A stretch of 64,000 bases of DNA from an uncultured Candidatus Saccharibacteria bacterium (GCA_964512925.1 CAZEKH010000001.1:136226-200225); one strand, 5' to 3'. Positions 6,281 through 62,985 are shown, counted from the first letter of the stretch. Made by a program: numbers and translations. The notes: generated by a model from the sequence alone, not told the origin.

Positions 6281-6341
6281 ATGCGATCCTAATTTACGAA
6301 TTACACTCGAATGATCCGAATGTAGTTTGAATAATAAATTA

Positions 6342-6752
6342 TTAAAGATAGCCAAGTTGTTTAAAAAGTTTTCTTGAGGGCGGAACTATATCCATATCTT
6401 TTAAATTTTCAATTTTTACCCATTCAATTTTTTCTACTCCCTCGGGTTTTTGCGGCTGGCCTGAAACATAGGAGCAAAGAAAGTTAAAATATTTATATTT
6501 TGTTTGAACTCCATTTATATCTGGTTTTTCTTCTTCGCTTATACCAATATCTTGATCAGCTTTTATTTTTATACCAAGTTGTTGCAGGATTGCTTTTTCC
6601 GCAAATTCTTTTAAATTTATGTCTTGTTCAGTAAATTCAGCTCCGAACAAATACCAAGTTTCTTTGTAAGGCAGACTGCCTTGCGGCTTTTTACGCATTA
6701 GTACTTTTCCTTGGTTTTCAATGACACATATAGCTAGGCTTTTTGTTTGCAT
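6342..6752 (-). CDS. NUDIX-fold protein with degenerate Nudix box
   Basis: GAEFTEQ...EFAEKAILQQLGI aligns to the MutT Nudix box, but RE..EE is replaced by KA..QQ. Confidence 0.45.
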   Translation of the reverse strand: MQTKSLAICVIENQGKVLMRKKPQGSLPYKETWYLFGAEFTEQDINLKEFAEKAILQQLGIKIKADQDIGISEEEKPDINGVQTKYKYFNFLCSYVSGQPQKPEGVEKIEWVKIENLKDMDIVPPSRKLFKQLGYL

Positions 6753-7904: not shown

Positions 7905-7998
7905 GTTGCCTCACCCCCCAGTACTATTTAGTACGGGGCAAGCCAGCCCCCAGCCCGAACGCCGCAAGCGGGCAGGTCTCCGATGTCGGAGAGGGGGT
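7905..7998. repeat. composite GC-rich palindromic repeat (CCTCACCCC / CCCGAACGCC...GGCGGGCAGGTCTCC-loop-GGAGAGGGGG modules)
   Basis: Same modules recur at 48320-48390, 48660-48740, 49140-49205, 52142-52200 and 55830-55900, and inside pgm at 33590-33650. Confidence 0.7.
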
Positions 7999-8004
7999 AG
8001 GGTG

Positions 8005-9105
8005 TTAAATTTGCAAATTGCTGTCCGCTGAAAGTTTTTTGTAGGAGATGGGTTTAAACCCGCCTGCTAGTTTAACCGCTGCGGCAATACCGATCATCTC
8101 TGCGTTGTCGCCGGTTAAGTGTAGGGGAGCGGGGAAGAATTTTAGTCCATTATTTTTAGACATTATCTCCAGTCTCTGCCTAAGCGCGCGGTTAGCGGCA
8201 ACTCCGCCTGACAGCGAGATGGATTTAGCGCCAAACTCTTTGGCTGCGCGCAGGGTTTTTTGGGTGAGAACATCTACAACCGCTTCCTGGAAGGAAGCGC
8301 AAATGTCAGAGGTAGCGTTTAGTGGGTAGCGTTTAGTGGGTAGGGACTGCAGGTGATAGAGGACAGCTGTTTTAAGACCGGAGAAGGAAAAGTTGTAGTT
8401 TTTGTGGGTGAGCATCGGGCGCGGGAAATTTATTGCCTTAGGGTCGCCTTTTTCAGCTAACTTGGAAACTTCCGGTCCGCCCGGGTAGGGAAGTTTGAAC
8501 ATCTTTGCCACTTTGTCAAAACATTCGCCCGCCGCGTCGTCCACGGTTTCGCCGATCACTTTATAGTTATGTAAATCTTTCATCAAAACCAGCATAGTGT
8601 GGCCGCCGGAAACTATGAGAGCAATGGATGGAAACACCCCCTCCCTTAATCCCTCCCCCGTTTTGCGGGAGAGGGAAGTGGAGAATGGTGAATATAGGTG
8701 GCCAAGCATATGGTTAATCGGGATCAGCGGTTTTTTTGTTGCCAGAGAAAGGGCTTTGGCAAACTCTACCCCTACGGCCAAAGAGACTATGAGCCCTGGG
8801 CCTTGGGTGGGGGCAATATAATCCAAATTTTCAATTTTTAATTTTGCAATTTTCAATGCCGACTCTACAACCGGGCGGATATATCTGATGTGAGCGCGGG
8901 CTGCGGCTTCCGGTACTACCCCGCCCATTTTGGAGTGGATTTTAATTTGGGATTTTACGACCGCAGACAGGATTTTTATTTCTGGCAATTTTTTATTAGT
9001 CCCCCTCTGCTGGTGAGGAGAGGGGTTAGGGGAGAGGTTACAGCTTAAAACCGCAGCAGCAGTTTCGTCGCAGGAAGTTTCAATGGCAAGAATTTTTTGC
9101 ATCAT
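8005..9105 (-). CDS. tsaD: tRNA N6-adenosine threonylcarbamoyltransferase TsaD (Kae1/Gcp family)
   Basis: N-terminal ILAIETSCDETAAAV, GGVAANRALR and C-terminal GDNAEMIG motifs. Two in-frame repeat-derived insertions (GEGLREGV; NLSPNPSPHQQRG). Confidence 0.85.
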   Translation of the reverse strand: MMQKILAIETSCDETAAAVLSCNLSPNPSPHQQRGTNKKLPEIKILSAVVKSQIKIHSKMGGVVPEAAARAHIRYIRPVVESALKIAKLKIENLDYIAPTQGPGLIVSLAVGVEFAKALSLATKKPLIPINHMLGHLYSPFSTSLSRKTGEGLREGVFPSIALIVSGGHTMLVLMKDLHNYKVIGETVDDAAGECFDKVAKMFKLPYPGGPEVSKLAEKGDPKAINFPRPMLTHKNYNFSFSGLKTAVLYHLQSLPTKRYPLNATSDICASFQEAVVDVLTQKTLRAAKEFGAKSISLSGGVAANRALRQRLEIMSKNNGLKFFPAPLHLTGDNAEMIGIAAAVKLAGGFKPISYKKLSADSNLQI

Positions 9106-20128: not shown

Positions 20129-20319
20129 TTGAGCAAAAATAAGTAAAATTGACAAAATTGATCAAAATTTAATAAAACGGGACTTACGTATATGGTGTCA
20201 TTCCCGCGGAGGCGGGAATCTAGTTAGTATAACTGTGTTATTTATTAATAAAATTTACTCTGTCACGTCTATTCATCTTTGATAAAAAAAGACAATATGG
20301 ATTTTTAAAAGTGAATAGA

Positions 20320-24438: not shown

Positions 24439-26802
24439 ATGTTAAAAAAAGCTCTTATTTTAGCGGCTTTTGTGGGGCTGATGGCGGCTTTTGCGCCAAA
24501 AGCTCTGGCCGCCACCCCGTATTTGTCCGTTTCTGGACAGAGCGGTGACAACTATACCTTTACCATCACTGGCGCGGATTCAAACGCGAGGGTGGTTTTG
24601 TACGCGAGAACCCAAGGGTCTTCGCTTTGGTCAACAGTCATTGACCCGATTGGTTATACAGACTTTTCCGGCAATTTAACCACCACAAAAAATGCAGGAT
24701 TAGGTAGTTCCGCTGGTGAGTTTTATGTTTTGGTCAACGGCCAGCAGTCAGGAGTGGTAAGTTCAAACTATAACAATTACAATAACTATAATGGAAATTA
24801 TAGCGGTTGTACTTATAACTGTGGCAGTCCATATGGTTTATCTTTGAGCCAAAACAGCGTCAGTGTGGCAGTAGGACAGAATTCGTATGTTACTGCCTAT
24901 AACTCTTCCGGGTTATATATTTCTTCAAATTCCAATTCTTCTGTTGTTATAGCTTCGGTTTCCGGTAATCAGATTACTTTATACGGCAGGGCTTCGGGCA
25001 CGGCAACTGTGCAGGTATGCGGCAATAGCTATAACAATAACTATTACTATAACAACAGCTCAAACTGCGCCAGCATTTTCGTTACCGTAAGTGGCGGAGT
25101 TTTGGGCGCAAATACCAACCTTTGGTTTTCGCCTTCTAACCCAACTTTATTTGTGGGGCAAAATTTAGCAGTCTCTATCAACAGTTCAGTGGTCGCGGGT
25201 AGCTACTACTATCCGCAGAGCAATGCCTACTATATTTCCTCTAACTCTAACTCAGGTGTTGTTTCCGCCAATGTAGTGGGAACAGTTTTAAACTTGTATG
25301 GCTTGACGAACGGTTCTTCCACTATCAATGTTTGTCACAGCTCGCTGGGGTATTGTTCAAGTCTGTATGTTACAGTTAGTGGCGGCTCCTCAGGATCCAG
25401 CATCACTTTTAGCGAACCAAGTCCGGCTATGTATGTCGGGCAAAGCAAAGCTGTCAGCATTTACGGCGGCTCGTATGGCACCTATTACATAGGCGCAAAC
25501 GGCAACTCCTCAGTAGTTTCAGCCAGCATTTCAGGTTCAACTTTGAACTTGTACGCAATGCAAAACGGTTCTTCCACCATTAGCATTTGTCAGTATGGTG
25601 GCACTTGCGGGTATATTTATGCTACGGTTTCCGGCTCGGGTACCGGGTCTTTAACTCTTAGCCAGGGCACTTTAAACCTAACACCTAACCAGTCTTCTTC
25701 AGTAACTGTTTATGGCAACAATTCCGGTCTCTATATTTCCCAAAATTCCAACTCCCAGGTAGCCAGCGCGACTTTGTCCGGCAATACTGTCAATGTGTAT
25801 GCCTACACGCAAGGCAACACTACTATTTCCATCTGCCAGACAGGATATAGCGTTTGCGCTTACTTGTATGTTACTGTCAGCGGCGGCTCTACCGGGGGAC
25901 AGGTTTGGTTTTCTCCTTCCAGCGCCAACATCAACGTTGGCCAAAATCAAGCGGTAAATATTTATAGCGGCAGTTTTAACAGCTATTACATCTCAGCTAA
26001 TTCAAACCCAAGCGTTGTAACAGCCAGCATTTCTGGCAATATAATGAACATCTACGGACGGGTAAATGGCTCTTCTACTGTTACAGTTTGTCAGTCTTCT
26101 GTCTCAGCCTGTTCTAGCTTTTATGTTACAGTATCTGGTGGCGGCACGACCGGCGGTTTGTCTTTAAGTCAAACCTCAGTTAGCTTAAACATCGGACAGA
26201 CTTCATATGTTACAGCTTATAACTCTTCTGGCCTGTACATTTCTTCCAATAGCAATTCTTCCGTAGCCTCAGCTTCTGTCTCAGGTAGTCAAATAATGAT
26301 TTACGGACTAACCAACGGCAGTACCAACATTTTGGTTTGTTCCGGTGGTTCGGGTTATACAGTGGGCTGTGCTACTGTGTATGTAACAGTTTCTGGTGGC
26401 GGCGGAGTTTTGGGTACATCTATCTACAAAAATGGCACACTGATTTCTGAAAACGGCACAGTCTATATAACTTATAAAAATACCAAAACCGGATTTGCCA
26501 ATAGAGCGGCTTTTGAAGGCTTGGGCTTTAGATTTACAAATGTTTTGTCCACCGGCTATACCGGCCTTGTTAACTCCGGTTATATTGTGCAGACTGCTTA
26601 TGCTTCCCACCCTTGGGGCTCCTGGATTAAGTCAGGCGGCACGGTTTACTTTGTCCACGAGTCTGGGCTTATCCCAGTTCCATCTTATGATGTGTTCTTA
26701 AATAATGGGGGACAGGACTACCTGGTGGTCCCTGCCAACTCCTGGGACTTTAGTCTCCCAATGCTGTCACCGATGACGTATGGGGATTTTAGGCTTCAAT
26801 AA
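24439..26802 (+). CDS. large secreted surface protein with ~8 tandem Ig-like (Big_2-type) repeats
   Basis: Signal peptide. Repeated modules ...YISSNSNSSVV-ASVSGNxITLYG-NGSSTVxVC-...YVTVSGG. Confidence 0.7.
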   Translation: MLKKALILAAFVGLMAAFAPKALAATPYLSVSGQSGDNYTFTITGADSNARVVLYARTQGSSLWSTVIDPIGYTDFSGNLTTTKNAGLGSSAGEFYVLVNGQQSGVVSSNYNNYNNYNGNYSGCTYNCGSPYGLSLSQNSVSVAVGQNSYVTAYNSSGLYISSNSNSSVVIASVSGNQITLYGRASGTATVQVCGNSYNNNYYYNNSSNCASIFVTVSGGVLGANTNLWFSPSNPTLFVGQNLAVSINSSVVAGSYYYPQSNAYYISSNSNSGVVSANVVGTVLNLYGLTNGSSTINVCHSSLGYCSSLYVTVSGGSSGSSITFSEPSPAMYVGQSKAVSIYGGSYGTYYIGANGNSSVVSASISGSTLNLYAMQNGSSTISICQYGGTCGYIYATVSGSGTGSLTLSQGTLNLTPNQSSSVTVYGNNSGLYISQNSNSQVASATLSGNTVNVYAYTQGNTTISICQTGYSVCAYLYVTVSGGSTGGQVWFSPSSANINVGQNQAVNIYSGSFNSYYISANSNPSVVTASISGNIMNIYGRVNGSSTVTVCQSSVSACSSFYVTVSGGGTTGGLSLSQTSVSLNIGQTSYVTAYNSSGLYISSNSNSSVASASVSGSQIMIYGLTNGSTNILVCSGGSGYTVGCATVYVTVSGGGGVLGTSIYKNGTLISENGTVYITYKNTKTGFANRAAFEGLGFRFTNVLSTGYTGLVNSGYIVQTAYASHPWGSWIKSGGTVYFVHESGLIPVPSYDVFLNNGGQDYLVVPANSWDFSLPMLSPMTYGDFRLQ

Positions 26803-29684: not shown

Positions 29685-29782
29685 ATTTCCTCCCCTTAGT
29701 GTAAGGGGAGGCTGGGAGGGGATATGAAGTTTTCAGTATCACCCCCTGCCCCCTCTTATGTTAAGAGGGGGGAAAATATTTG
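29685..29782. repeat. m2-m1 junction of the CCTCCCCTTA..TAAGGGGAGG / ATCACCCCC..CCCCCTCTTA..TAAGAGGGGG repeat family
   Basis: Same modules flank the DUF559 gene at 40400-41005, in the opposite order. Confidence 0.6.
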
Positions 29783-29785
29783 CGT

Positions 29786-30880
29786 CTATGCAGATGTTAG
29801 GAAATGAACAACATCCCCATCCTGTACCACATAGGCTTTGCCTTCGGTGCGAAGCCAGCCTTTTTCTCGGGCCTTGCCATAGCTGCCGGCTTCCAGGAGT
29901 TTGTCCCACTGGATGACTTCCGCGCGGATGAAGTTTTTTTCAAAGTCAGAGTGGATCTTGCCTGCGGCCTCAGGCGCTTTGGAGCCGGCTACACAAGTCC
30001 AGGCTTTGGACTCTTTTGGTCCCGCCGTGATGAAAGTTACCAAGCCCAAAGTTTTGTAGGCTTGTTTGATGATTTTGTTTAAACCTGACTCAGGCAGTCC
30101 CAGCTCTTTTAAATATTCGCTCCGTTCTTCGTCAGAAAGTTCGGAAAGCTCGGATTCAAGTTGCGCATCAGCAGATATAAAATCCTTATAGTCCCCCTCC
30201 CCAGGCTTGGGGAGGGTTGGGGAGAGGTCGAAGTTTTTAGTACTTAAATCAAATTTCTGGTTCGCCACAAACAAAAACGGTTTTGTGGTAAGAAGCTGGA
30301 TGTCTTTGCTGTTTTCTTTTTCTTCATCGCTCAAAGAAACTTCAGACGCCATTTTCCCTTGGTTTAAAGCTTCTCTATATTTTTCCAAAACCTGTTTTTT
30401 TATAACCATTTCCCGGTCGCCGGATCTGGCGCCTTTGGAAGCGGTCTCAAGCCTTTTTTCCACATTTTGCAGGTCAGCCAGCTGAAGCTCCAGGCCAATA
30501 GTTTCCATATCCCTTTTTGGGTCCACAGTGCCGGAAACGTGGATGATGTCCTTGTTTTCAAAAAACCTTATAACTTCCATTATAGCGTCCACTTCTCTTA
30601 TGTTTGCCAAAAACTGGTTACCCAAACCTTCGCCTTTGTGCGCGCCGGCAACCAAACCTGCGATGTCCACGAACTCTATGGTAGTAGGCACGACTTTTTC
30701 ACTTTTTTCCTGCTGGGCAAGTTTTCCAAGCCTCTCGTCCGGCACTGTTACGACTGCCACGTTTGGTTCAATAGTTGCAAAAGGGTAGTTGGAAGCCACA
30801 ACCTTGCTTTTGGTAATGGCGTTAAAAAGTGTGGATTTGCCTACATTTGGCAGGCCGACAATGCCGATTTTGAAGCTCAT
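29786..30880 (-). CDS. ychF: ribosome-binding ATPase YchF (Obg-family GTPase)
   Basis: GIVGLPNVGKSTLFNA, NYPFATIEPN, C-terminal TGS domain. In-frame repeat insertion at 30190-30235 (PKPGEGDYKDF). Confidence 0.9.
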   Translation of the reverse strand: MSFKIGIVGLPNVGKSTLFNAITKSKVVASNYPFATIEPNVAVVTVPDERLGKLAQQEKSEKVVPTTIEFVDIAGLVAGAHKGEGLGNQFLANIREVDAIMEVIRFFENKDIIHVSGTVDPKRDMETIGLELQLADLQNVEKRLETASKGARSGDREMVIKKQVLEKYREALNQGKMASEVSLSDEEKENSKDIQLLTTKPFLFVANQKFDLSTKNFDLSPTLPKPGEGDYKDFISADAQLESELSELSDEERSEYLKELGLPESGLNKIIKQAYKTLGLVTFITAGPKESKAWTCVAGSKAPEAAGKIHSDFEKNFIRAEVIQWDKLLEAGSYGKAREKGWLRTEGKAYVVQDGDVVHFLTSA

Positions 30881-31211
30881 AGTTTTTCCTTATAGTCTCC
30901 CTCCCCCTGTCTGCCGCCAGGCAGGCAAAGCTTGGGGAGGGTTGGGGAGAGGTTTGATCTTGAATAATAACGATATACAACCCAAGTATTGTAAATGAAA
31001 TAAGGATTTTCGCCAAGCATTAAATTTTTACTAATGCGAAATAATACAAAGTCATTTTTTTGTGTCATCCCCGCGGAGGCGGGGATCTTGCTAATTGTCA
31101 TTATTTACCGATTTTCATATGGGTAAACTTCAACAGGTATCTAAGTTTGCCCAGCAAGGACTTGATTTTTTCAAAGAGAGAGAGAGTACATTACTGGGCA
31201 AGGAGGTAGTT

Positions 31212-32479: not shown

Positions 32480-33940
32480 ATGCAAAACATAGATACTTCC
32501 ATTTTCAAAGCCTATGACATAAGGGGTATATATCCAACACAGATAGATGCGGATTTGGTATATAAAATTGGTCAGGCGTATTTGCAGTTTCTGCAAACGC
32601 GGAATTACGCTGACCAAGACGCGGACTTACGGAGAAAGTTTAAAATTGTAGTGGGACACGATATGCGCCTGTCTGGGGAGGAGTTTTCTGAAAGCGCAAT
32701 CCGCGCTTTGACAGACGCGGGAGCGGATGTGGTGGATATCGGCCTGGTTTCAACTGATCAGTTGTACTTTGCTGCCGCGACTTTGGACGTTGATGGCGGT
32801 ATTCAGATCACTGCCAGCCACAACCCGAAAGAATACGGCGGGATGAAATTGGTTAGGGAAAAAGGCCGGCCGATTTCGGGGGATAGCGGAATTTATCAGA
32901 TTCGGGATTTGGTAATAAGTAATCAGAAATCAGTTATCAGTGATCAGAGAGGAAGAGTGGAAAAGAAGGATATTACTGAAGAGTATTATAAACATATACT
33001 AAAAACTTTTGAAATAAGTAAATTTAAAAAATTCCGTATAGTTGCCAATGCCAACTTTGGGATGGCTAATCCCGCCATCGAAAAGCTTAAAACTCTTTTG
33101 CCAATTGAGTTTGTGGAAGTTTTAAATGGCCATTTGGACGGCAGTTTCCCTAAAGGACCTTCGGATCCACTACTTCACTCTAACCGTGAAGAAACTATAG
33201 AAGCCATAAAAAAGCACAAACCGGATTTGGGCGTGGCTTGGGACGGGGACGCTGACCGTTGTTTCTTTTTTGATGAGAACGGAAAATTTGTCACACCCGC
33301 GTACATAAACGCGATTTTAGCAGAATACTATTGCAAAAAAAATCCAGGCTGCAAGATACTTCACGATACCAGGGTTGTAAGAGTGATTGATTATGCCGTA
33401 GAAAAAAACGGGGGAGTGAGTGTCATGAACAAAGCCGGCCACTCGTTCATAAAAGAGCGGATGATCAAGGACGACATTGTTTTTGGCAATGAAACTTCGG
33501 GGCACTATTATTTCAAGGACAATTTTTATCTGGATAACGGCCTAATGCCGTTTTTGGCAATACTGTCAATTTTGTCCGAATATATATCTCCCTCATCCTT
33601 TGCGGGAGACCTGCCCGCCGTGGGTGTTCGGGCGGGGGGTCAGGGAGAGGTCGTGCTGTTATCCGATATTCTACAGCCTTTACGCGAGAAGTTTTTTATC
33701 TCCGAAGAGATAAATTTTAAAGTCAAAGATGCCAATCAGGTTATTGAAAGCCTCAGGCAAAAATACCAGGAAGCCAAAATAGATGAAATAGACGGTTTGG
33801 ATTTTAATTTCCCATCCTGGCGCTTCAATGTGCGCAAAAGCAATACAGAACCGCTTTTAAGGCTCAACTTGGAAGCTAATAGCCAAAAAGAGCTTGAGGA
33901 AAAACAAAAAGAAATTAGCGATTTAATTTTAGCCATATGA
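32480..33940 (+). CDS. phosphomannomutase/phosphoglucomutase (alpha-D-phosphohexomutase family)
   Basis: Active-site TASHNPKEYGGMK, metal-binding DGDADR. In-frame palindromic-repeat insertion at 33590-33650 (SFAGDLPAVGVRAGGQGEVV). Confidence 0.85.
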   Translation: MQNIDTSIFKAYDIRGIYPTQIDADLVYKIGQAYLQFLQTRNYADQDADLRRKFKIVVGHDMRLSGEEFSESAIRALTDAGADVVDIGLVSTDQLYFAAATLDVDGGIQITASHNPKEYGGMKLVREKGRPISGDSGIYQIRDLVISNQKSVISDQRGRVEKKDITEEYYKHILKTFEISKFKKFRIVANANFGMANPAIEKLKTLLPIEFVEVLNGHLDGSFPKGPSDPLLHSNREETIEAIKKHKPDLGVAWDGDADRCFFFDENGKFVTPAYINAILAEYYCKKNPGCKILHDTRVVRVIDYAVEKNGGVSVMNKAGHSFIKERMIKDDIVFGNETSGHYYFKDNFYLDNGLMPFLAILSILSEYISPSSFAGDLPAVGVRAGGQGEVVLLSDILQPLREKFFISEEINFKVKDANQVIESLRQKYQEAKIDEIDGLDFNFPSWRFNVRKSNTEPLLRLNLEANSQKELEEKQKEISDLILAI

Positions 33941-39766: not shown

Positions 39767-39923
39767 AAATGGATTTTAGTAACTTATGCATTATATGGAT
39801 TTTGAAACTTTGCGTCAAGGCGCTACAGAAAAAAGTTGACCGCACTACAGATGCCTACAAAAAAATGCAGGGTTGACATTTGCAGATTTTTATGGCATTG
39901 TAGGTGTGCGAAGGGGGTAAATT

Positions 39924-40307
39924 ATGCGTATCTGGTTGTTGGTGCATACTGGCTTGTGGTTGCTGATGATCGCACCCGCAAGCTGGTTGGGCTGCTTGTG
40001 GGCACTGGCAGGGGTGGTTGCGCCACTAGAAAAAATGCCCTGGTGGCAAAGGGTTGTTGCCGCGAGTATTTTTGCCCTCGGGTTAGTATACGCCACTGGG
40101 TTTATGATTGATCCATGGTTTACACCAGCAGGCACTGCTTGCGCAATGGTATTTTACTATCTGGGGGTTCTGTTGTGGGTCATTGGTCAGGGGCTTTGGT
40201 GGCTTCTGCCCAAAATGGTCTGGCCGTTTGTGGCCAGTCAAATCCTAATCGGAGTGCTTATACTCCGAAAATGGATGCACAGCAAGCCATTTTCGGTTCA
40301 ACCCTAG
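39924..40307 (+). CDS. hypothetical membrane protein, high GC
   Basis: TTGACA -35-like at 39875. SD GGGGGT. 4 TM helices. Confidence 0.35.
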   Translation: MRIWLLVHTGLWLLMIAPASWLGCLWALAGVVAPLEKMPWWQRVVAASIFALGLVYATGFMIDPWFTPAGTACAMVFYYLGVLLWVIGQGLWWLLPKMVWPFVASQILIGVLILRKWMHSKPFSVQP

Positions 40308-40399
40308 CAACTTTTTCAATCGTTTTTTGCTCGCTGATACGCGGGCGCGCTTTTAGGGCGGACGTTGTTATACGGCCGCCTTTTTGTTTTTTCTATAAA

Positions 40400-41005
40400 A
40401 AATATCACCCCCCAGCCCCCTCTTACTTTAAGAGGGGGAGGAGAAAAAAAGGCTCTAATTATTTTATAGAAATGATATTGTTCCGTCCCTCCCCTTAAGA
40501 TAAGGGGAGGTTAGGAGGGGATACTTTTTAGCGCATTTATTGTTTGCAGAATTTTTTCTCCTACGCCATCAATATTTTTAAATACATCAGTATTGTAAAA
40601 TCTTAATACAATAATATTTTGTTTATCTAAAAATTTAGTGCGGATTTCATCATTGATTTTATTTTGTATCTCTAAATGCTGTCCGCCGTCTAACTCAATA
40701 GCAAGTCTTAATTTTGAACAATAAAAATCCAAAATATAATTACCCACGCTATATTGCCGCGTAAATTTATAACCCGTTTGTCTGTTCCTTAAAATCTGCC
40801 AGAGTTTGTATTCTGCATCTGTTTGGTTGTTGCGAAGATTTTTTCTAAGTTGCTTTAACTGTGGGTGTTGGTAAAACATAAAGTATGAGTGAATATCACC
40901 CCCCAGCCCCCTCTCCTGCCAAAGGCGGGCAAGTATTTTAAGAGGGGGAGGTTATTTTTGCATTATCCCTCCCCTTAAGATAAGGGGAGGTTAGGAGGGG
41001 ATAGT
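40400..41005 (-). mobile_element. DUF559 endonuclease cassette bounded by ~110-bp direct repeats
   Basis: Direct repeats 40400-40510 and 40893-41005 (m1 ATCACCCCCCAGCCCCCTCT...TAAGAGGGGGAGG; m2 TCCCTCCCCTTAAGATAAGGGGAGGTTAGGAGGGGATA) flank the 369-bp ORF. Confidence 0.4.
40511..40879 (-). CDS. DUF559 endonuclease-domain protein (Vsr/restriction-endonuclease-like fold)
   Basis: YILDFYCSKLRLAIELDGGQH motif typical of DUF559. Confidence 0.75.
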   Translation of the reverse strand: MFYQHPQLKQLRKNLRNNQTDAEYKLWQILRNRQTGYKFTRQYSVGNYILDFYCSKLRLAIELDGGQHLEIQNKINDEIRTKFLDKQNIIVLRFYNTDVFKNIDGVGEKILQTINALKSIPS

Positions 41006-41013
41006 GTTTCGAA

Positions 41014-42975
41014 TTATAAACTCTTTTTTATAGTCTCTGCCAGTTTTTGCCCCACCACTTCAGCCAGTTCTTCCAATGATGAGTTTTTTATTTGGCTGAC
41101 TGTGCCGAATTTGGTTTTTAAGAGTTTTTTGGTTTTAGGCCCCACGCCCGGTATTTCGTCCAGCGCAGATTTAACGGCTTGCTTGCTTCTTAAGCTTCGG
41201 TGGAAAGTTATGCCAAACCTGTGGGCTTCGTCGCGAAGTCTTTGCAACATCTGAAGCCCGGGCTGATCGTGGCTTAAAACTATGGGAGTGGGATTGCCCG
41301 GTAAAAATATTTCCTCGATGCGTTTGGCCAAGCCGATCAAGGGTATAGGGCTAAGGGCTAAGGGTATAGACTCTATTTTTTCCAGCGCAGCGGATAGTTG
41401 GCCTTTGCCCCCGTCTATCACTATCAAATCCGGTATGGGCCAGAACTCCCCCGGCTTCGCCACCCCCTCTTTGGCAAAGAGGGGGGAGGGGGAGTTCGTC
41501 TGATTTACTGATCCACTGACCAAATGTCCCGACTTGGCTAGTCTTCTGCTTAGCATTTCCTGCATCATCTGGAAATCGTCCGGCGTGTCTTTTGTGCGGA
41601 TTTTAAATTTTCGGTATTCGGATTTTTTAGGCATTCCGCCCTCAAACACCACCATACTCCCGACCGCGTTAGTGCCCTGGGTGTTGGAGATGTCGTAACA
41701 TTCTATCCGCCTTGGGATATTTTTCAAATTCAAAACTTCTTTGAGTTGCTCCAATCCTGCATTTATCCTATCTAGCATAAAGGCTTCGGAAGACTGTTTT
41801 TGTTTGAGAAATTCCAAAGCGTTTTCTTCGGCTATTTTCCAGAGTTTTTGCGGTTGTTTTTGAATTGCTAAATTGATTTTAATAGTTTTGCCTGAGCGTT
41901 CTTTTAGTAAAGCTTCTAGAAGGTTTTGATTTTCAATTTTAGTTCCAGTATAAATTTTTTTCGGAAAATCCGAAGTCTTACTATAATAGTCCTCTAAAAA
42001 CCTTTGCAGCCCAGTTTCTTCCCCCCTTAAGATAAGGGGGGACTGAGGGGGGTTATGATGCAGAGTGGATTTGTAGACATTTGTAAATTTGTCTTTCATT
42101 TGTATATTTGAATTTTTGTAGACAAAATTTTCCTTATCTGCCAGTTTTCCTTGCCTGACTTTCAGTAGACTAAAAGAGATCTCCCCATTTGCTTGGCTTT
42201 GCCCGACAACATCCCAGGAAACTTTTTTAGGCATAATCACATTTTGCTTTTGTTCCAGAGATTCTAGGGATTTGATTTGGTTTCTAAGGCGCGCGGCTTT
42301 TTCAAAAAGTTTTTTAGCCGCGGCTTTTTGCATTTCTCTGGCAATTTCTTTTTTTACGCCTATTATGTCGCCTTGTAAAAATTTTTTAATTTTATCGAGA
42401 TGTTTTGCGTATTCTTCAAGGGTTATTGAGCCTATGCACACACCAGGGCAGCGGTGCAGATGAAAGTAAAAGCAAGGTTTTTGGCCAATTTTCTCATTGG
42501 CGCAATAGGAAAAGATGTAGCGGACAGTTTTAAGAATCTCTTTGGCTTTGTAAGCGGCGGAGTAGGGACCGAAAGAAGTAGGGCTAAGGGCTAAGGGTTT
42601 AGGGTGTAGGGATAGTTCAATATTTCTGGAAATGGTTATTTGGGGTATTTGTGTTGAGTAGTCAATGACAATAAACGCATAGCTCTTGTCGTCTTTTTGG
42701 AGGATGTTGTATTTGGGGCGGTATTTTTGGATCAGGGTTTGTTCCAGGTACAGGCTTTCAAGTTCAGTTGAAACTACTGTAAAGTCTAAGCTTTTTGCTT
42801 CCTGCATCAAGAAAGGAATTTGAGGTCTTTCATCTGTGCCACGGAAATACTGGCTAACTCGGTTTTTCAGGTCTTTGGCTTTACCCACATACAAAACCGC
42901 CCCGTCTTGGTCTTTGTAAATATAGACCCCGGGTTTTTTGGGGAGGCTTGGGAGGGTGAAACTTATTTTTTTCAT
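41014..42975 (-). CDS. uvrC: excinuclease ABC subunit C; start at internal Met MKKISF (the ORF track's upstream extension translates an intergenic hairpin)
   Basis: N-terminal GIY-YIG (GVYIYKDQDGAVLYVGKAKDLKNR), UvrBC interaction region, RNase-H-like endonuclease, C-terminal HhH. At least four in-frame repeat-derived insertions. Confidence 0.9.
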   Translation of the reverse strand: MKKISFTLPSLPKKPGVYIYKDQDGAVLYVGKAKDLKNRVSQYFRGTDERPQIPFLMQEAKSLDFTVVSTELESLYLEQTLIQKYRPKYNILQKDDKSYAFIVIDYSTQIPQITISRNIELSLHPKPLALSPTSFGPYSAAYKAKEILKTVRYIFSYCANEKIGQKPCFYFHLHRCPGVCIGSITLEEYAKHLDKIKKFLQGDIIGVKKEIAREMQKAAAKKLFEKAARLRNQIKSLESLEQKQNVIMPKKVSWDVVGQSQANGEISFSLLKVRQGKLADKENFVYKNSNIQMKDKFTNVYKSTLHHNPPQSPLILRGEETGLQRFLEDYYSKTSDFPKKIYTGTKIENQNLLEALLKERSGKTIKINLAIQKQPQKLWKIAEENALEFLKQKQSSEAFMLDRINAGLEQLKEVLNLKNIPRRIECYDISNTQGTNAVGSMVVFEGGMPKKSEYRKFKIRTKDTPDDFQMMQEMLSRRLAKSGHLVSGSVNQTNSPSPLFAKEGVAKPGEFWPIPDLIVIDGGKGQLSAALEKIESIPLALSPIPLIGLAKRIEEIFLPGNPTPIVLSHDQPGLQMLQRLRDEAHRFGITFHRSLRSKQAVKSALDEIPGVGPKTKKLLKTKFGTVSQIKNSSLEELAEVVGQKLAETIKKSL

Positions 42976-43103
42976 TTGTAGGTTTGAATTTGAGGTCATT
43001 GTCATTCCCGTGAAAACGGGAATCTTAATGAGTTTATTATACTTGTCCGTAACGCAGGTTGACAAATAAATTTGTAAATAGTATACAAAAGCGGGGAGGA
43101 TGG

Positions 43104-43677: not shown

Positions 43678-46584
43678 ATGGCTGATATCATTTCTATCCG
43701 CGGGGCGCGGATGCATAACTTAAAAAATATTGATGTAGATTTGCCTAGAAACAAGCTGGTGGTTTTAACCGGCCTGTCAGGCAGCGGCAAGTCGTCTTTG
43801 GCTTTTGACACCATCTATGCCGAAGGGCAGAGAAGGTATGTGGAAAGTTTGTCAGCTTATGCCAGACAGTTCATTGGTCTTATGGACAAGCCGGACGTGG
43901 ACAAAATAGAAGGTTTGTCCCCGGCAATTTCCATTGACCAAAAGTCCGCATCGCACAACCCTCGCTCTACTGTCGGAACCGTAACTGAAATTTATGACTA
44001 TATGAGGCTACTTTGGGCTCGTGTGGGAGTGCCTCATTGTCCGGTCTGCGGGAAAAAAATCCAAGGTCAAACTATCCAGGCAATGGCTGAGCAGCTTTTG
44101 GGTTTGGAAAAAGGCACAAGGCTGATGCTTTTGGCGCCTTTTATTAAAGATCAAAAAGGCGAACACCGGCATATATTTGAACAGATCAAAAAAGCCGGTT
44201 TTGCCCGCGTGCGTGTGGATGGCACAGTGATGGACTTAAACGAAGCCCAGGGTTTAAGCCTGGACAAGCAAAAAAAACATAATATAGAAGTGGTGGTGGA
44301 CCGCGTGGTGGTAGATCCGGCTGAACGGGGCAGACTCTCCGAGAGTCTGGAAAAGGCTGCGGATTTGGGCGATGGGATAGTTATAGCTTTGCGGGTTGCT
44401 GAAGAAACAAAACCTGACAGCAAGACGCGATCAACCTCTCCCCAGCCCTCCCCAAGTCTTGGGGAGGGAGGCTATAAGGAAATATTGCTCTCCCAAAAAT
44501 TCGCTTGTCCGGACGGACACATTCAGCTGTCTGAGCTGGACCCGAGGGATTTTTCTTTTAACAGCCCGCACGGAGCTTGTTCGGAGTGTAAGGGTTTGGG
44601 CACTAAGCTGACGGTGGAGCCGGATTTGGTTTTACCCAACCACCGGCTGACTTTGGCTGAAGGCGCTATCCGTCCCTGGAGCAAGACGACTTCCAGACAG
44701 TCCTGGTACTCGCGGATGCTGGAAGCCGTGGCCAAAGAATACGGTTTTTCCGTACACACTCCGGTGAAAGATTTGCCAAAAAAATATATTGATATTGTTT
44801 TGCACGGTTCAGGCGAGAAAAAAATCCGCATCTCCGGCGAGTTTAGGAGCGGCGACGGGGAGTTTGAGATGAACACGGTTTTTGAAGGCGTGGTGCCAAA
44901 CCTGGAGAGGCGGTACCGCGAGACTGACTCGGAATATATGCGCAGCGAAATAGAAAATTATATGCGCGTGCGCCAGTGTCAGGTTTGCCACGGCAAGCGC
45001 CTTAGGCTGGAAGTTTTGGCTGTGACCGTAGGCGGACAGGGGATAGTGGAGGTATCTGCTATGACTATAGACAAAGCCGCGGATTTTTTTGAAAAACTTT
45101 CCAAATCTTTGAGCGCCAAAGACAATCAGATTGCCAAACAAATTTTAAAGGAAATTTCCGCGCGTCTGTCTTTTTTGCTCAATGTTGGTTTGTCGTATTT
45201 GTCTTTGGACAGAACTGCGGATACTTTGTCCGGTGGGGAAGCCCAGCGCATCCGTTTGGCGACCCAGATCGGCAGCGGCCTGACCGGAGTTTTGTATATA
45301 TTGGACGAGCCATCTATCGGCCTGCATCAGCGCGACAACGGTAGACTCCTTAAAACATTGAAAGATTTAAGAGATTTGGGCAATACGGTGATAGTTGTAG
45401 AGCACGATGAGGAAACCATTCGCGAGGCGGATTGGGTGGTGGACATCGGACCAGGAGCCGGCAAGCACGGAGGCGAGCTGGTGGCGGAAGGTAAACCTTT
45501 GGATATTGAAAAAAATCCGAAAAGCATCACCGGGCAGTATTTGTCAGGAAAAGAATACATAGAAGTGCCGAAAAAAAGACGGCACGGCAACGGTAAAAAT
45601 ATTTCAGTTGTGGAAGCTTCTGAGTTTAACCTGAAAAATGTTACAGCCCAGATCCCGCTCGGCAAATTTGTCTGCGTAACCGGGGTGTCAGGTTCCGGCA
45701 AATCTACATTGATTTCTGACATTTTAGCCAGAGCGTTAAACAAACATTTTTGGGACAGCAAGGACGAACCAGGCAAGCATAAAAAGATCACGGGACTTGA
45801 ACACCTAGACAAAGTCATCAGCATTGACCAAAGCCCCATAGGCAGGACTCCGAGGTCAAACCCGGCTACTTACACCGGGCTGTTTACGCCGATCCGGGAG
45901 ATTTTTGCCGAAACCCGCGAAGCCAAGATGCGCGGCTATCAGGCTGGCAGGTTTAGTTTCAACGTCAAAGGCGGTCGTTGTGAGAAATGCGCCGGGGACG
46001 GGGTTTTGAAAGTCGAGATGAATTTTTTACCCGATGTCTATGTAACCTGCGAAGAGTGCAACGGCAAAAGGTATAACCGCCAGGCTTTGGAGATCCACTA
46101 TAAAGAAAAAACCATTTCCGATGTTTTGGAGATGACAGTTGACGAAGCAAAAACTTTTTTTGCAGCCGTGCCTGCCTTGCACAAAAAACTGGAAGTCTTG
46201 TCCCAGGTGGGCTTGGGCTATATGCGCCTGGGCCAGAACGCCACGACTTTGTCCGGCGGGGAAGCTCAGAGGATCAAACTTGCAACCGAACTGTCGCGCG
46301 CGTCTACCGGCCGCACTCTTTACCTTTTAGACGAGCCAACTACGGGCTTACATTTTGCGGACGTCAAACGTTTGATCCACGTTTTAAACAAACTGGTAGA
46401 CAAGGGCAACACTGTGGTGGTCATAGAACACAATCTGGATATGATCAAAACCGCGGATTGGCTTTTGGATATGGGTCCGGACGGGGGAGACAAGGGCGGA
46501 ACTATAGTTGCCGAAGGCACACCCGAAGATGTGGCAAAAGTCAAAGTTAGCTTTACCGGCCAATACCTAAAAAAGATTTTATAA
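43678..46584 (+). CDS. uvrA: excinuclease ABC subunit A
   Basis: Two ABC ATPase modules ([12 protein letters not shown]; [11 protein letters not shown]), zinc fingers and signature motifs. In-frame repeat insertion at 44430-44480 ([17 protein letters not shown]). Confidence 0.95.
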
Positions 46585-48289: not shown

Positions 48290-49215
48290 TTTGTATAATT
48301 TTTTACATACTAATTAACTCCCCCAAGGCCCCCCGTCCGAACGCCCACGGCGGGCAGGCCTCTTTAAAAAAGAGGGGGGAATGAAGCGGGTAGGTTTGAA
48401 AAAGAGTGGAAAAAATATTACAGTCGTTGCAACCTCACCCCACCCCCTCTCCGATAGCGGAGAGGGGGAAGCGGATGCAAGATTCCAGCCGGAGTTTACC
48501 CCGATGAACATCGGGGCGGGAATGATACCTTTTCTATTTTTGTCATCCCCACATAACCGGGGATCTTGGTTTTTACCCTCTCCAATATGGGAGAGGGTGT
48601 CCCGATGAACATCGGGACGGGTGAGGTTTGAGCGATGGTGATAAAATATAAGTTGGTTTAATTTTCTAACATTGTTACCTCACCCCATCCCCCCGCCCGA
48701 ACGCCACAGGCGGGCAGGTCTCCCAAATGGGAGAGGGGGTAAAGAACGCATCATTCTCACCTAGTGGGAATGATATAGAAACGCGGAATGACGGAATATT
48801 TTTCCTATTTTCCCCAAGTTTCCCACATAGCTTTGCACAGGGGTTTTCCACTTTTGGGGGATAATTTTTGCTGTTTGTTGGGCTTTGACCAGAGGCAGGC
48901 TTTTGTGCCAAGATATAAAGACCACTTTTTACCCCCGTTAGAAGCAATCCGCCGTCAGGTGGATACCGAGCCTTTTTGTGCCCGGGCTTCTAACGGGGTG
49001 ATCTGGTTTGTGGGGACATTAACTCCCCCTGACCCCCTCTTTGAAAAAGAGGGGGAAATGAAAGGGGGTAGATTTGAAAAAGAGGGGAGAGGCTTAAAAT
49101 ATTACAATCATCGTAACCTCACCCCCCTACTTCGTTAAAACTTCGTAGGGCAAGCCAGCCCCCCGCCCGAACGCCCAAGCCGGGCAGGTCTCCGATAGCG
49201 GAGAGGGGAACTAAT
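48290..49215. repeat. ~0.9-kb non-coding repeat cluster
   Basis: Contains CCCTCTCC-loop-GGAGAGGG hairpins, CCGATGAACATCGG hairpins, CCCGAACGCC..GGCGGGCAGGTCTCC modules, a TGTCATCCCC..GGGGATC element and a 75-bp GGTGAGG..CCTCACC MITE-like unit. Confidence 0.7.
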
Positions 49216-52142: not shown

Positions 52143-52265
52143 TGCCCCTCTCCGAGCACGGAGACCTGCCCGCCGTGGGCGTTCGGGCGGGGGGTTAGGG
52201 TGAGGTAACAGTGTTTGAATATTAAATAAGCTTAAATTTTATTACCATCGCTTAAACCTCACCCC
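52142..52265. repeat. composite repeat including a 75-bp MITE-like element (GGTGAGGTAACAG...TTAAACCTCACC)
   Basis: Near-identical copy at 52870-52990. Related copies at 48610-48683 and 58930-59005. Confidence 0.7.
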
Positions 52266-52311
52266 AGCCCTCTCCCATATAGGAGAGGGAGTAAAAACAT
52301 TTCTGACAATT

Positions 52312-52797
52312 ATGATCAATTCTGCGCAATCTAAAAACGGGTTTACCCAACACCATTTTTTTTTAGAAAAAAATAGTGCTGGGTTTACCCTCATAGAAGT
52401 TTTGGTTTCAATGGGTATACTGGCAATGCTGGGGACTTTGGGACTGGTGTTTGGGTTGGATTTTTATCGGGCGTATGCTTTTAACTCGGAAAGGGATTTG
52501 GCGGTGGGGATTTTACAAAAAGCGCGCAGTCGCAGTTTGGCTAACATTAACCAAACAACTCACGGAGTTTGTATTATAGGTTCTAAATATATTTTGTTTG
52601 AGGGTGCTTTAAATTGCGATCCGAACAATTCAGCCAATGAAGTTTATGATGCAAACCCAGGCGTTTCAAATTCGGGACTACAAATTGTTTTTCAGCAGCT
52701 TTCCGGTAGGCCGAATTCTGTTGGTTCTGTAACATTAACTTCGGGCGTGAGATCTTCGGTTATTAACATTAACGCTGAGGGGATGGTGGAGTGGTAA
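52312..52797 (+). CDS. pseudopilin / minor pilin (prepilin-type N-terminal cleavage/methylation domain)
   Basis: KNSAGFTLIEVLVSMGILAMLG class III signal. Confidence 0.7.
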   Translation: MINSAQSKNGFTQHHFFLEKNSAGFTLIEVLVSMGILAMLGTLGLVFGLDFYRAYAFNSERDLAVGILQKARSRSLANINQTTHGVCIIGSKYILFEGALNCDPNNSANEVYDANPGVSNSGLQIVFQQLSGRPNSVGSVTLTSGVRSSVININAEGMVEW

Positions 52798-53056
52798 AAT
52801 AATTTAAGATTAAAGATTAAAGATTGAAGATTTAAACAATACGTTTTTATTTTATATGTATGAGTTTTTTCAAATCCCCCTCTCCACTCTCGGAGAGGGT
52901 TAGGGTGAGGTAACAGTGTTTGAATATTAAATAAGCTTAAGTTTTATTACCATCGCTTAAACCTCACCCCTTCCCTCTCCCATATGGGAGAGGGAGTGAA
53001 AAATCAAAAAAAATAGGGTTGAGATAATGTAAAAAAAATGCTAAACTAAGGCGCAA

Positions 53057-55795: not shown

Positions 55796-56112
55796 ATATG
55801 CTTGTCATTCCCTTGGCAAAGGGAATCTTGTACCCTCTCCCTCTCCGAGAGACGGGGATCTGCCCGCCTTGGGCGTTCGGGTGGGGGTAGGGGTGAGGTT
55901 ACGGATTTGATAAAATTAAAGATATTTAAATATGTAATATTAACCCCTGGATCCCGGATATCCCGCGAAGCGGGATTCCGGGATGACAGCAAAAATTTTT
56001 TGGAAAGATTGAATTTTGAACATTGAATCAAGATATTTCTAAAAAACCAACCGCCTTTACAAAAGGCGGATATAAAATTATAATTAAGCCATAAATATTA
56101 AATCATTAAAAT

Positions 56113-61002: not shown

Positions 61003-61617
61003 ATGAAATATATAAAAAAAATTATACTTTGGGTTTTGTTTTTGTTGGTCTTATGTACGGTGTCAGTGGTGCTGTTGAATTTTCGGTATTTTGTTTTGCA
61101 GTATCAGCTTTTGGTGTCCGGCAAGCCGCCAGAGATAGAGGCGCCGCAAATTTCTAAAAATTCTCAAACGTTGGAAAAAAATGAAAAGCCAAATTATCTT
61201 TGGATTCCATCTTTGGGCATTGAAGCTCCCATAGTATATGTGGATGGAATAACTGACCAAATTTTTCAAGAAGCTTTAGGAAAAGGTGTAGTGCATTTTC
61301 CTCAAACCGCCAAGCCAGGGGAATATGGCAACTGTTACATATTTGGCCATAGCAGCGACTATGCCTGGAGCAAAGGTTCGTACAAAACAGTATTTGCTTT
61401 GCTAACCAAGATTCAGCCAGGGGCGGAAATATTGGTTTCAGATAGTATTGGCAAAGTTTATTTCTATAAAGTTTTGGAAGCAAAAGTGGTAAGTAAAAAG
61501 GATGTGGGCCTGCTGTCCCAGGAAAAATATACAAAAAAACTTTTAACTTTACAAACTTCTTATCCGATAGGCACAGCTTTAAAGCGCTATATTGTTCGCG
61601 CGGAGTTGTCTGAGTAA
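61003..61617 (+). CDS. sortase-fold protein with Ser in place of the catalytic Cys (TLQTS instead of TLxTC)
   Basis: N-terminal TM anchor. Conserved His in NCYIFGHSS. LLTLQTSYP...RYIVRAE matches sortase TLxTC...R spacing, but the codon is TCT (Ser). Confidence 0.55.
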   Translation: MKYIKKIILWVLFLLVLCTVSVVLLNFRYFVLQYQLLVSGKPPEIEAPQISKNSQTLEKNEKPNYLWIPSLGIEAPIVYVDGITDQIFQEALGKGVVHFPQTAKPGEYGNCYIFGHSSDYAWSKGSYKTVFALLTKIQPGAEILVSDSIGKVYFYKVLEAKVVSKKDVGLLSQEKYTKKLLTLQTSYPIGTALKRYIVRAELSE

Positions 61618-62079: not shown

Positions 62080-62985
62080 ATGCCAGTTAAAACCAAACCT
62101 TCAACAATTGTTAAATCTTCAAACAAAAAAGCTTTGTTAAAAGCGGTTTTGGTTGTAAAAAAAAGGTCAAAGCTAAAGAATGCCGAAGCGATAAAAATTA
62201 AAAAAAATTCTAGAGCAGAAAAGAACAAGTCCGGAGTTTTAGCATTGAAAAAAAATAAAACCGTTAAACTTAAAAGCCCCCCAGAGTTTTTAATTTCCAA
62301 GCCCAGAGAGTACAGCCTTAGGCAAATTTTGCTGAAGCTGGAAACAGAAAAAATAAATTTAAAACCACAGAGCCCCGTTAAAGTTTTTTTAAGAAATTTT
62401 GTTACAGCCTCAGGAGCGGCGGTTTTGTGTTGGATGGTGTTAAATTCCCCGTATTTTTTTGTAGCCGCCAAGCAGGAGATAAATCAAATTTCAAAATCAG
62501 CGGAAACAAGCGGTGCTCAGGAAATGATTCAAACTAAGATATTACCAGAGCTTAAGACAAATGAAATTTATATTCCAAATTTGCAAATTCGGGCTCCGAT
62601 AGTTTATGCCCAAAATAAAGATGAGTCCGAATTTCAAAAATCTTTGAGATTTGGCGTCGTGCACTATCCGGAAACCGTAATGCCTGGCGAAAAAGGCAAC
62701 TGTTATATCTTTGGCCATAGTTCTGATGCGGCCTGGACAAAAGGCGAATATAAAACAGTGTTTGCGGCGCTTCCCCAGATAGTCACTGGCGAGTCCATTT
62801 ATATTTCCGATCCTGAAGGCAGGGTTTATGTTTATAAAGTTTATGAGACTTTGGTTGTTTCGGCTTCTGACACCAAGTATATTTCTGAAAATTTTGGAGA
62901 AAAAACGATATTAACTCTTCAAACTTCCTATCCTGTGGGGACTGCTTTAAAAAGGTATATAGTTCGAGCGGAGGTTTTAGAGTAA
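62080..62985 (+). CDS. sortase-fold protein paralog, also with TLQTS (Ser) and Lys-rich N-terminal extension
   Basis: NCYIFGHSSDAAW ... ILTLQTSYPVGTALKRYIVRAEV. Ser codon TCC differs from the paralog's TCT. Confidence 0.55.
   Translation: MPVKTKPSTIVKSSNKKALLKAVLVVKKRSKLKNAEAIKIKKNSRAEKNKSGVLALKKNKTVKLKSPPEFLISKPREYSLRQILLKLETEKINLKPQSPVKVFLRNFVTASGAAVLCWMVLNSPYFFVAAKQEINQISKSAETSGAQEMIQTKILPELKTNEIYIPNLQIRAPIVYAQNKDESEFQKSLRFGVVHYPETVMPGEKGNCYIFGHSSDAAWTKGEYKTVFAALPQIVTGESIYISDPEGRVYVYKVYETLVVSASDTKYISENFGEKTILTLQTSYPVGTALKRYIVRAEVLE

Follow-up and report, generated by a model that had tools for sequence, protein, structure and literature searches.

At the 40-kb position of the window –the whole 64-kb stretch of DNA that was analysed– a small nuclease gene lies between uvrC and secG, enclosed on both sides by C/G-rich hairpin repeats. 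This gene (40511-40879, minus strand, 369 nt) is the only DUF559 gene in the window, presents a GC content of ~30% compared to 43% for the window, and encodes a 122-aa protein with a single Vsr-like PD-(D/E)XK domain. In a Pfam search, the product matched DUF559 (PF04480, E=1e-32) along profile positions 3-108 of 109 and, besides, MTES_1575 only; no HUH/Y1 transposase was among the matches. It also matched the NCBIfam model PRK09767 (YcjD) with E=7e-25, below the equivalog cut-off. The nearest solved relatives were PDB 3HRL (profile match E=3e-31) and the homing endonuclease I-Bth0305I (3R3P, E=7e-4), and residues D51, E62, D64, and H68 were invariant in 30 aligned homologues, the window protein included. 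An exact-protein look-up returned no record for it.

DUF559 is a very large protein family with no assigned function. One DUF559 protein of Caulobacter, VsrA, damages DNA and leads to an SOS response in vivo (PMC12907096). The window protein belongs to the same fold superfamily as Vsr and VsrA, but its gene is found in a repeat-bounded cassette and not in a repair operon. In the secG-uvrC interval, we saw no cytosine methyltransferase gene next to it.

Each side of the gene carries two repeat units, m1 and m2. The left flank (40401-40524, 124 nt) begins with m1-left (40401-40442, plus strand), which consists of a C-rich third-strand segment ATCACCCCCC (40404-40413), an AG spacer, and the hairpin arms 40416-40425 and 40429-40438, with a DNA fold of -10.7 kcal/mol (z=-3.5). 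It continues with m2-left (40486-40524, minus strand), with a hairpin at 40488-40510, a TTA spacer, and a G-rich mirror segment GGAGGGGATA; this unit supplies the stop and the last four codons of the nuclease gene (S-I-P-S-TAA). The right flank (40892-41004, 113 nt) holds m1-right (40892-40952, plus strand), with 13 nt between the unit end and the DUF559 ATG, and m2-right (40966-41004, minus strand), whose minus-strand start is 10 nt past the uvrC stop.

When the flanks were compared, m2-right was identical to m2-left (39/39), and m1-right shared with m1-left the 23-nt 5' part and the 12-nt 3' arm (for m1, 23 nt and AAGAGGGGGAGG are identical; for m2, 39 nt). The 20-nt m1 core ATCACCCCCCAGCCCCCTCT had exactly two copies, at 40404 and 40895 (chance expectation of 0.01), and so did the 35-nt m2 core, at 40489 and 40969 (chance expectation of 0.00). 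With modules identical left and right and these exact-match counts, we confirmed the proposal of the first-pass annotation that a two-module repeat flanks the DUF559 ORF on both sides. The same annotation described the flanks as direct repeats of ~110 bp. However, the spacer between m1 and m2 is unrelated in the two flanks, with ~43 nt in the left one and 13 nt in the right one, and the loop of m1-right has ~19 nt extra, including a small hairpin CCTGCC-AAA-GGCGGG (40915-40929), so these are not simple 110-bp direct repeats. Moreover, m2 corresponds to an m1-like unit in reverse complement; thus, both flanks consist of a single unit type arranged as a convergent pair. The two units directly on either side of the gene are inverted relative to each other. 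No Rfam family matched the units or the locus, either at gathering thresholds or at permissive E-values.

The window derives from a genome of Patescibacteria, probably of the Doudnabacteria type, and its uvrC-secG interval measures 1,247 nt. Four relatives present the same gene order (uvrA, uvrC, secG, SBP_bac_5 gene, and RNase J), but their uvrC-secG gap is only ~100-160 nt, with neither units nor DUF559; this empty-site comparison is at the level of synteny, with UvrC 57-59% identical and a best identity of 59%. The DNA missing from these relatives (39830-41013) extends from the secG promoter to the uvrC stop and contains ORF 39924-40307, a terminator-like hairpin, and the block of unit pair, DUF559, and unit pair. 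secG retains its own promoter (TTGACG-17-TATAAT, 39818-39790). ORF 39924-40307 (plus strand, 127 aa, ~52% GC), located between secG and the DUF559 block, encodes a hydrophobic product with no Pfam match and is absent at the syntenic position in the four relatives; the terminator-like hairpin ends near 40393.

Repeats of this type were reportedly noticed in E. coli by Bergler in 1992 as BoxC, and Hoyne and Maher are said to have re-described them as PIT elements in 2000. We know of no reported origin, spreading mechanism, or associated gene for BoxC, PIT, or TM repeats. In 2015, Holder et al. described them as intrastrand triplex motifs tied to genome instability, with the BoxC/PIT/TM_ECO consensus CCCTCNCCC-N3-6-GGGNGAGGG-N3-GGGNGAGGG and a second loop of TTA or CCG (PMC4666352). 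The motif was found in >260 genomes, triplex formation was demonstrated in vitro for TM_ECO, and 23 TM_ECO copies were described in E. coli K-12, some of them as inverted pairs of both types (PMC4666352). The authors never found mobility functions near the motif, and ycjD, DUF559, and "endonuclease" are absent from the main text of that study (PMC4666352).

The unit described here is made of a C-rich segment, a 2-3-nt spacer, and an 8-10-bp hairpin whose 5' arm is C/T-rich and whose loop measures 3-7 nt. For m2, the three-block layout is CCTCCCCTTA-AGA-TAAGGGGAGG-TTA-GGAGGGGATA, where the segment outside the hairpin mirrors the adjacent arm. BoxC/PIT/TM repeats share this architecture of C-arm, loop, G-arm, 2-3-nt second loop (TTA or CCG type), and G-rich mirror third strand, and they also occur as singles and inverted pairs of two subtypes, dispersed and in many phyla. 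Among 135 units from other genomes, the third segment mirrored its own arm at >=7/8 positions in 30% of the units, compared to 6% when the arms of other units were used (p=5e-4). Window units of the form CCTCACCCC-AG-CCCTCTCC...GGAGAGGG resemble the TM_ECO consensus, with a close fit at 52268, 52878, 59005, and 59626 (CCCTCTCC..GGAGAGGG..GGGTGAGG), and the CCTCACCCC/CCCTCTCC subtype prevails between 48 and 60 kb. The m1 and m2 units are variants, with stems CCCCCTCT and CCTCCCCTTA, that present the TM architecture but not the exact E. coli consensus.

Judging from its sequence, and with hairpin folding as the structure computed for the window units, we identify the window unit with the repeat named BoxC, PIT element, or intrastrand triplex motif (TM). 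There are also differences. The E. coli copies were reported as always intergenic, whereas several window units are in frame within genes. Besides, a DUF559 gene cassette of the window has such units as its ends, whereas the published work reports no associated mobility function and mentions neither ycjD nor DUF559 nor an endonuclease. We also considered the leader as a direct repeat of its own 5' arm and rejected it (0.605 vs. 0.586, p=0.056); the mirror relation was supported instead.

A scan for perfect hairpins of the unit type retrieved ~27 units of several subtypes in the 64-kb window. Solo units are in frame in uvrC at 41463-41485 and 42020-42042 (both minus strand), encoding ...NSPSPLFAKEG... 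and ...HHNPPQSPLILRGEETG..., respectively, each missing in 9 homologues; in uvrA at 44446-44468 (plus strand), with an encoded peptide missing in 3 relatives; and in ychF at 30195-30216 (minus strand), encoding ...LSPTLPKPGEGDY... Two further ORFs carry in-frame units (4383-4444 and 4816-4837 in ORF 4019-6355, and 9002-9025 in ORF 8005-9105). Relative to homologues, the uvrC and uvrA solo units are insertions, and the two uvrC insertions are located exactly at the units. In-frame units are translated to Pro/Ser/Gly-rich peptides, e.g. PPQSPLILRGEE. Rickettsia palindromic elements are likewise short palindromic repeats that are in frame in housekeeping genes and tolerated as extra peptide loops, but their sequences are unrelated to the window units, and to our knowledge they have no associated protein gene.

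Apart from the nuclease gene, a pilin-like gene (52312-52797, with an N_methyl motif) is located between 106-nt direct repeats (52192-52297 and 52897-53002, 95% identical), each of which consists of two head-to-head units separated by a conserved spacer of 49 nt. Thus, flanking direct repeats are not DUF559-specific in this window. No DUF559 remnants were found between the other head-to-head pairs of the window, and the weak tblastn matches elsewhere in it were mainly repeat-encoded terminal extensions of homologues that matched the units.

A gene-less head-to-head pair (29687-29774, no strand assigned) consists of an m2-like unit at 29687-29724 (hairpin 29689-29711), a 12-nt spacer, and an m1-like unit at 29737-29774 (hairpin 29749-29771). 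Its facing mirror segments are able to pair, and its DNA fold is -27.2 kcal/mol (z=-5.9). The first-pass annotation read this region (29685-29782) as m2 directly followed by m1 and as the 40-kb locus without its gene. The m2-m1 order was correct, and the polarity is that of the pair immediately bracketing DUF559, but 12 nt separate the two units. In the alignment with the 40-kb flanks, the copy is co-linear solely with the inner m2-m1 pair and lacks the outer m1 and m2. Its m2 shares 75% identity with the flank copies and its m1 67-70%, and other family members are at least as close. The identity of 67-75%, the missing outer modules, and the unit-free empty hrpA sites described below argue against an empty site, and a gene-less (MITE-like) inverted pair belonging to this family is a better reading than an empty allele. 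Besides this one, the window has no fewer than three more head-to-head pairs (52.2, 52.9, and 54.6 kb).

To place the locus in a broader context, we used 80 DUF559 loci, drawn from many phyla, with one archaeon among them, and fetched via homologue alignment, with a perfect C/T-rich hairpin counted within ~155 nt downstream and ~165 nt upstream of DUF559. The hairpin was present downstream in 70/80 loci, upstream in 65/80, and on both sides in 59/80, with a background hairpin density of 0.21 per kb in the same loci. For 316 other ORFs of these loci, the values were 7.9% downstream, 4.1% upstream, and 2.2% on both sides (Fisher p ~1e-44). In most loci, the 3' end of DUF559 runs straight into a unit and an inverted unit lies just ahead of the start codon, and many loci contain no such hairpins within 10 kb other than the flanking ones.

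The similarity between the downstream unit and the reverse-complemented upstream unit was 0.44 within a locus and 0.17 between loci (p=2e-24). At the sequence level, the cassette ends behave as terminal inverted repeats that vary from genome to genome. DUF559 protein identity was correlated with end similarity (Spearman 0.19; in a Mantel test, 0/999 permutations reached the observed value), and shared descent contributes to this correlation. The gene-less units had a perfect stem match to the local cassette ends in 38% of cases, compared to 11% for the ends of other loci (p=7e-12); in locus L060, an unusual stem GCCCCTTTCGC was common to the cassette ends and six background units. Unit polarity varies: where polarity could be called, the third strand is oriented toward the gene in ~70% of cases, and some loci show the opposite orientation at both ends. 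Four loci (L012, L037, L058, and L062) contain, within 5 kb of the first DUF559 gene, a diverged second one with 41-47% identity to the query.

Several cassettes are in frame in host genes together with their units. These genes encode MetH in a Stagnimonas aquatica isolate (L031 1902-6299), HrpA in Sideroxydans (L023 4230-8627 and L091), and five MmeI-like restriction-modification enzymes (L010, L026, L030, L045, and L073). When compared to E. coli HrpA, Sideroxydans HrpA presents a single clean 194-aa insertion, and only one other of the 120 closest HrpA homologues listed carries PF04480. The occupied hrpA site of L091 holds 462 nt, made of unit, DUF559, and unit. Within this Sideroxydans/Gallionellaceae hrpA comparison, the same site is uninterrupted (...KHF|LN or SG|AP...) and has no units in the hrpA orthologues L089 and L090 (85-86% identical). 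Since these empty sites are unit-free, units arrive together with the gene, and the entry of the whole cassette into unit-free DNA is evidence against a gene that inserts into a pre-existing repeat. The earlier suggestion that the nuclease gene was inserted into, or mobilised by, the repeat is therefore upheld in part: gene and repeat belong together (the 80 loci and the uvrC-secG interval of the relatives) and look mobile, but a pre-existing m2-m1 site is not supported.

At the outer hairpin edges, no general signal of target-site duplication was detected (mean 1.97 vs. 1.69 in controls). In L005 and L011 (Desulfuromonadales, Geobacter), direct repeats of 8 nt (TTTTGGCT) and 7 nt (CTAAAAG) surround the whole cassette and may be clade-specific target-site duplications. 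The hairpins of the Sideroxydans cassettes (L091 1086-1118 and 1488-1520; L023 4850-4960) contain one stem mismatch, which reads T·G or C·A depending on the strand, and the majority of E. coli TM_ECO copies are likewise of the 'mm' type. Vsr is a T:G mismatch endonuclease.

For the 40401-41004 segment, we suggest that it is probably a selfish cassette, mobile or once mobile, with the gene-less units as its miniature relatives and with a nuclease that would act on the units. The autonomous, protein-coding form would be the Vsr-like DUF559 gene between inverted units of C/G-rich mirror repeat plus hairpin. The miniature forms would be the ~27 gene-less units of the window, either single, head-to-head (29687-29774), or in frame in uvrC and uvrA. 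DUF559 would recognise the hairpin- and triplex-prone units, both at the cassette ends and in dispersed copies, and nick or cut there; host repair or replication would afterwards copy or move units and cassette. The DUF559 nuclease is thus proposed as a candidate protein partner of the BoxC/PIT/TM repeats.

Several observations count against the cassette reading. Target-site duplication is not consistent and unit polarity is not uniform; there are ~27 units of several subtypes in the window for one DUF559 gene flanked by one subtype pair; and another small gene of the window is also flanked by repeat pairs. Regarding a cassette driven by the nuclease, a 122-aa hydrolytic nuclease alone cannot perform strand transfer.

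The main rival explanation is that DUF559 is a passenger and that the units are moved or copied by other means, such as replication slippage, template switching at triplex or hairpin structures, or another enzyme, with a unit pair now and then taking the small nuclease gene with it. The nuclease itself might then be an addiction or defence function, or act on forks that stall at these structures. The passenger reading is in line with the polymerase stops reported for the motif (PMC4666352) and with the large excess of units over genes (27 versus one in the window; 23 TM_ECO copies and a single ycjD in E. coli K-12). Nevertheless, bracketing by units is 10-30 times commoner for DUF559 than for neighbouring ORFs, and one gene family recurs with the units across phyla and at unrelated insertion sites. 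In agreement with a passenger, several unit subtypes lack a cognate DUF559 gene anywhere in the 64 kb and unit pairs also bracket the pilin-like gene, but the cassette ends co-vary with the protein, and random cargo is not expected to be always one 120-aa nuclease. Overall, we regard a passenger role as unlikely.

A second alternative is a homing endonuclease gene that split a pre-existing head-to-head m2-m1 junction, with 29685-29782 as the unoccupied target, and we consider it very improbable. The family is related to I-Bth0305I (3R3P), with which DUF559 shares a Vsr-like catalytic domain and the condition of a small selfish nuclease gene that can occupy host genes. However, the DUF559 cassette is not in an intron or intein, its in-frame copies are translated through, and it has its own inverted repeats. 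The gene is located exactly between two facing mirror segments that jointly form a palindrome, and this palindrome is intact in the 29.7-kb pair, but the identity of that copy to the flanks is only 67-75%. At hrpA, the orthologous empty sites are unit-free, so the units come in with the gene; units are also absent from the uvrC-secG spacers of the relatives, and in many loci the flanking units are the sole ones within 10 kb. Homing implies that the target is the uninterrupted allele and that the gene occupies its own recognition site; here, the intergenic, hrpA, metH, and MmeI-like sites are unrelated, and the empty hrpA sites have nothing in common with the units. With so many unrelated insertion sites, recognition of the empty allele by DUF559 is unlikely.

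We give hardly any credence to the hairpins as ordinary cis-regulatory elements (terminator, mRNA stabiliser, or translation control) with an incidental likeness to dispersed repeats: they are placed at the 5' and 3' ORF ends and the upstream G-rich segment is Shine-Dalgarno-like, but no T-run follows them (the terminator scan detected no hairpin plus T-run at the units, save the small nested hairpin in m1-right), PIT elements showed neither promoter nor terminator activity (PMC4666352), identical units are found within coding regions and other intergenic regions, and the inverted, co-varying ends within a locus are left unexplained.

Among known systems, the proposed cassette resembles REP/REPIN-RAYT, as a functional analogy only. 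In both, a single-copy enzyme gene lies between inverted copies of a genome-dispersed short palindromic repeat, and the repeat classes are genome-specific, match the gene-adjacent copies, and occur as singlets and inverted doublets. However, the enzyme of the cassette is a Vsr-like PD-(D/E)XK hydrolase and not an HUH/Y1 transposase, its units carry mirror-repeat triplex motifs and no GTAG or CGTC tag, and the DUF559 cassette itself appears horizontally mobile and enters genes. Insertion sequences and MITEs share with it the terminal inverted repeats around one gene, the gene-less end-to-end derivatives, and the documented insertion polymorphism, but the DUF559 cassette has no DDE, serine, tyrosine, or HUH transposase, and no consistent target-site duplication was found for it.

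In E. coli, the DUF559 gene is ycjD, and TM_ECO number 9 lies 168 nt downstream of it. At the 3' end of ycjD in K-12 (L081 8040-8830), we found a degenerate unit-like sequence, a duplicated fragment of the gene's own 3' part, and then TM_ECO number 9. Across 5,426 E. coli genomes, the family of this unit occupies a median of 16 places in each, and the K-12-type sequence breaks off 8-40 nt from TM_ECO number 9 in ~38% of complete E. coli genomes. Partial matches to the ycjD region correspond to different DNA beside fabI, e.g. TetR and RND efflux genes in O157:H7.

On a wider scale, we tentatively propose that DUF559, E. coli YcjD included, could be the missing partner of the BoxC/PIT/TM repeats, and that together they could represent a previously unrecognised class of mobile elements. 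The autonomous form of this class would be a cassette of ~450-600 bp with inverted triplex motifs and a Vsr-like structure-specific nuclease as its only protein. The miniature forms would have spread from candidate-phyla bacteria to enterobacteria, even in frame in essential genes, where the Pro/Gly-rich unit translations could serve as tolerated linkers.

The consistent physical link between DUF559 and the repeat gives a candidate explanation to each of them. If true, a nuclease-only element would join the short list of bacterial repeat-plus-enzyme systems, and the in-frame Pro/Gly-rich insertions in housekeeping proteins of small-genome bacteria would be accounted for. Repeat and protein family were each already known. 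We did not find the DUF559-repeat association, the layout of the cassette, or its in-frame insertions described in the searchable literature –which omits many subscription-journal papers–, where 25 papers name DUF559 and 2 name PF04480, none of them linking it to repeats; nothing relevant was retrieved there on Vsr-like mobile elements, REP/RAYT, or Patescibacteria repeats.

Other repeats were also observed in the window. A small GC-rich palindrome, CTGCCCGCC..GGCGTTCGGGCGGG, is nested in arms or loops of triplex-motif units (7936-7996, 33605-33651, 48328-48362, 48678-48738, 49148-49208, 52160-52206, and 55854-55900), which suggests a separate tiny repeat family inserting into units. GTGTCATTCCCGCGGAGGCGGGAATC represents a third family of dispersed palindromes, present five times in the window (20195-20226, 31062-31093, 42999-43030, 48540-48571, and 55802-55833). 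Finally, two sets of direct repeats of ~150 nt were ~70% identical. The first set (24835-24986 and 26155-26306) is within the long ORF 24439-26802 and probably represents internal protein repeats of that ORF; the second one (61264-61412 and 62632-62780) spans ORFs 61003-61617 and 62080-62985.
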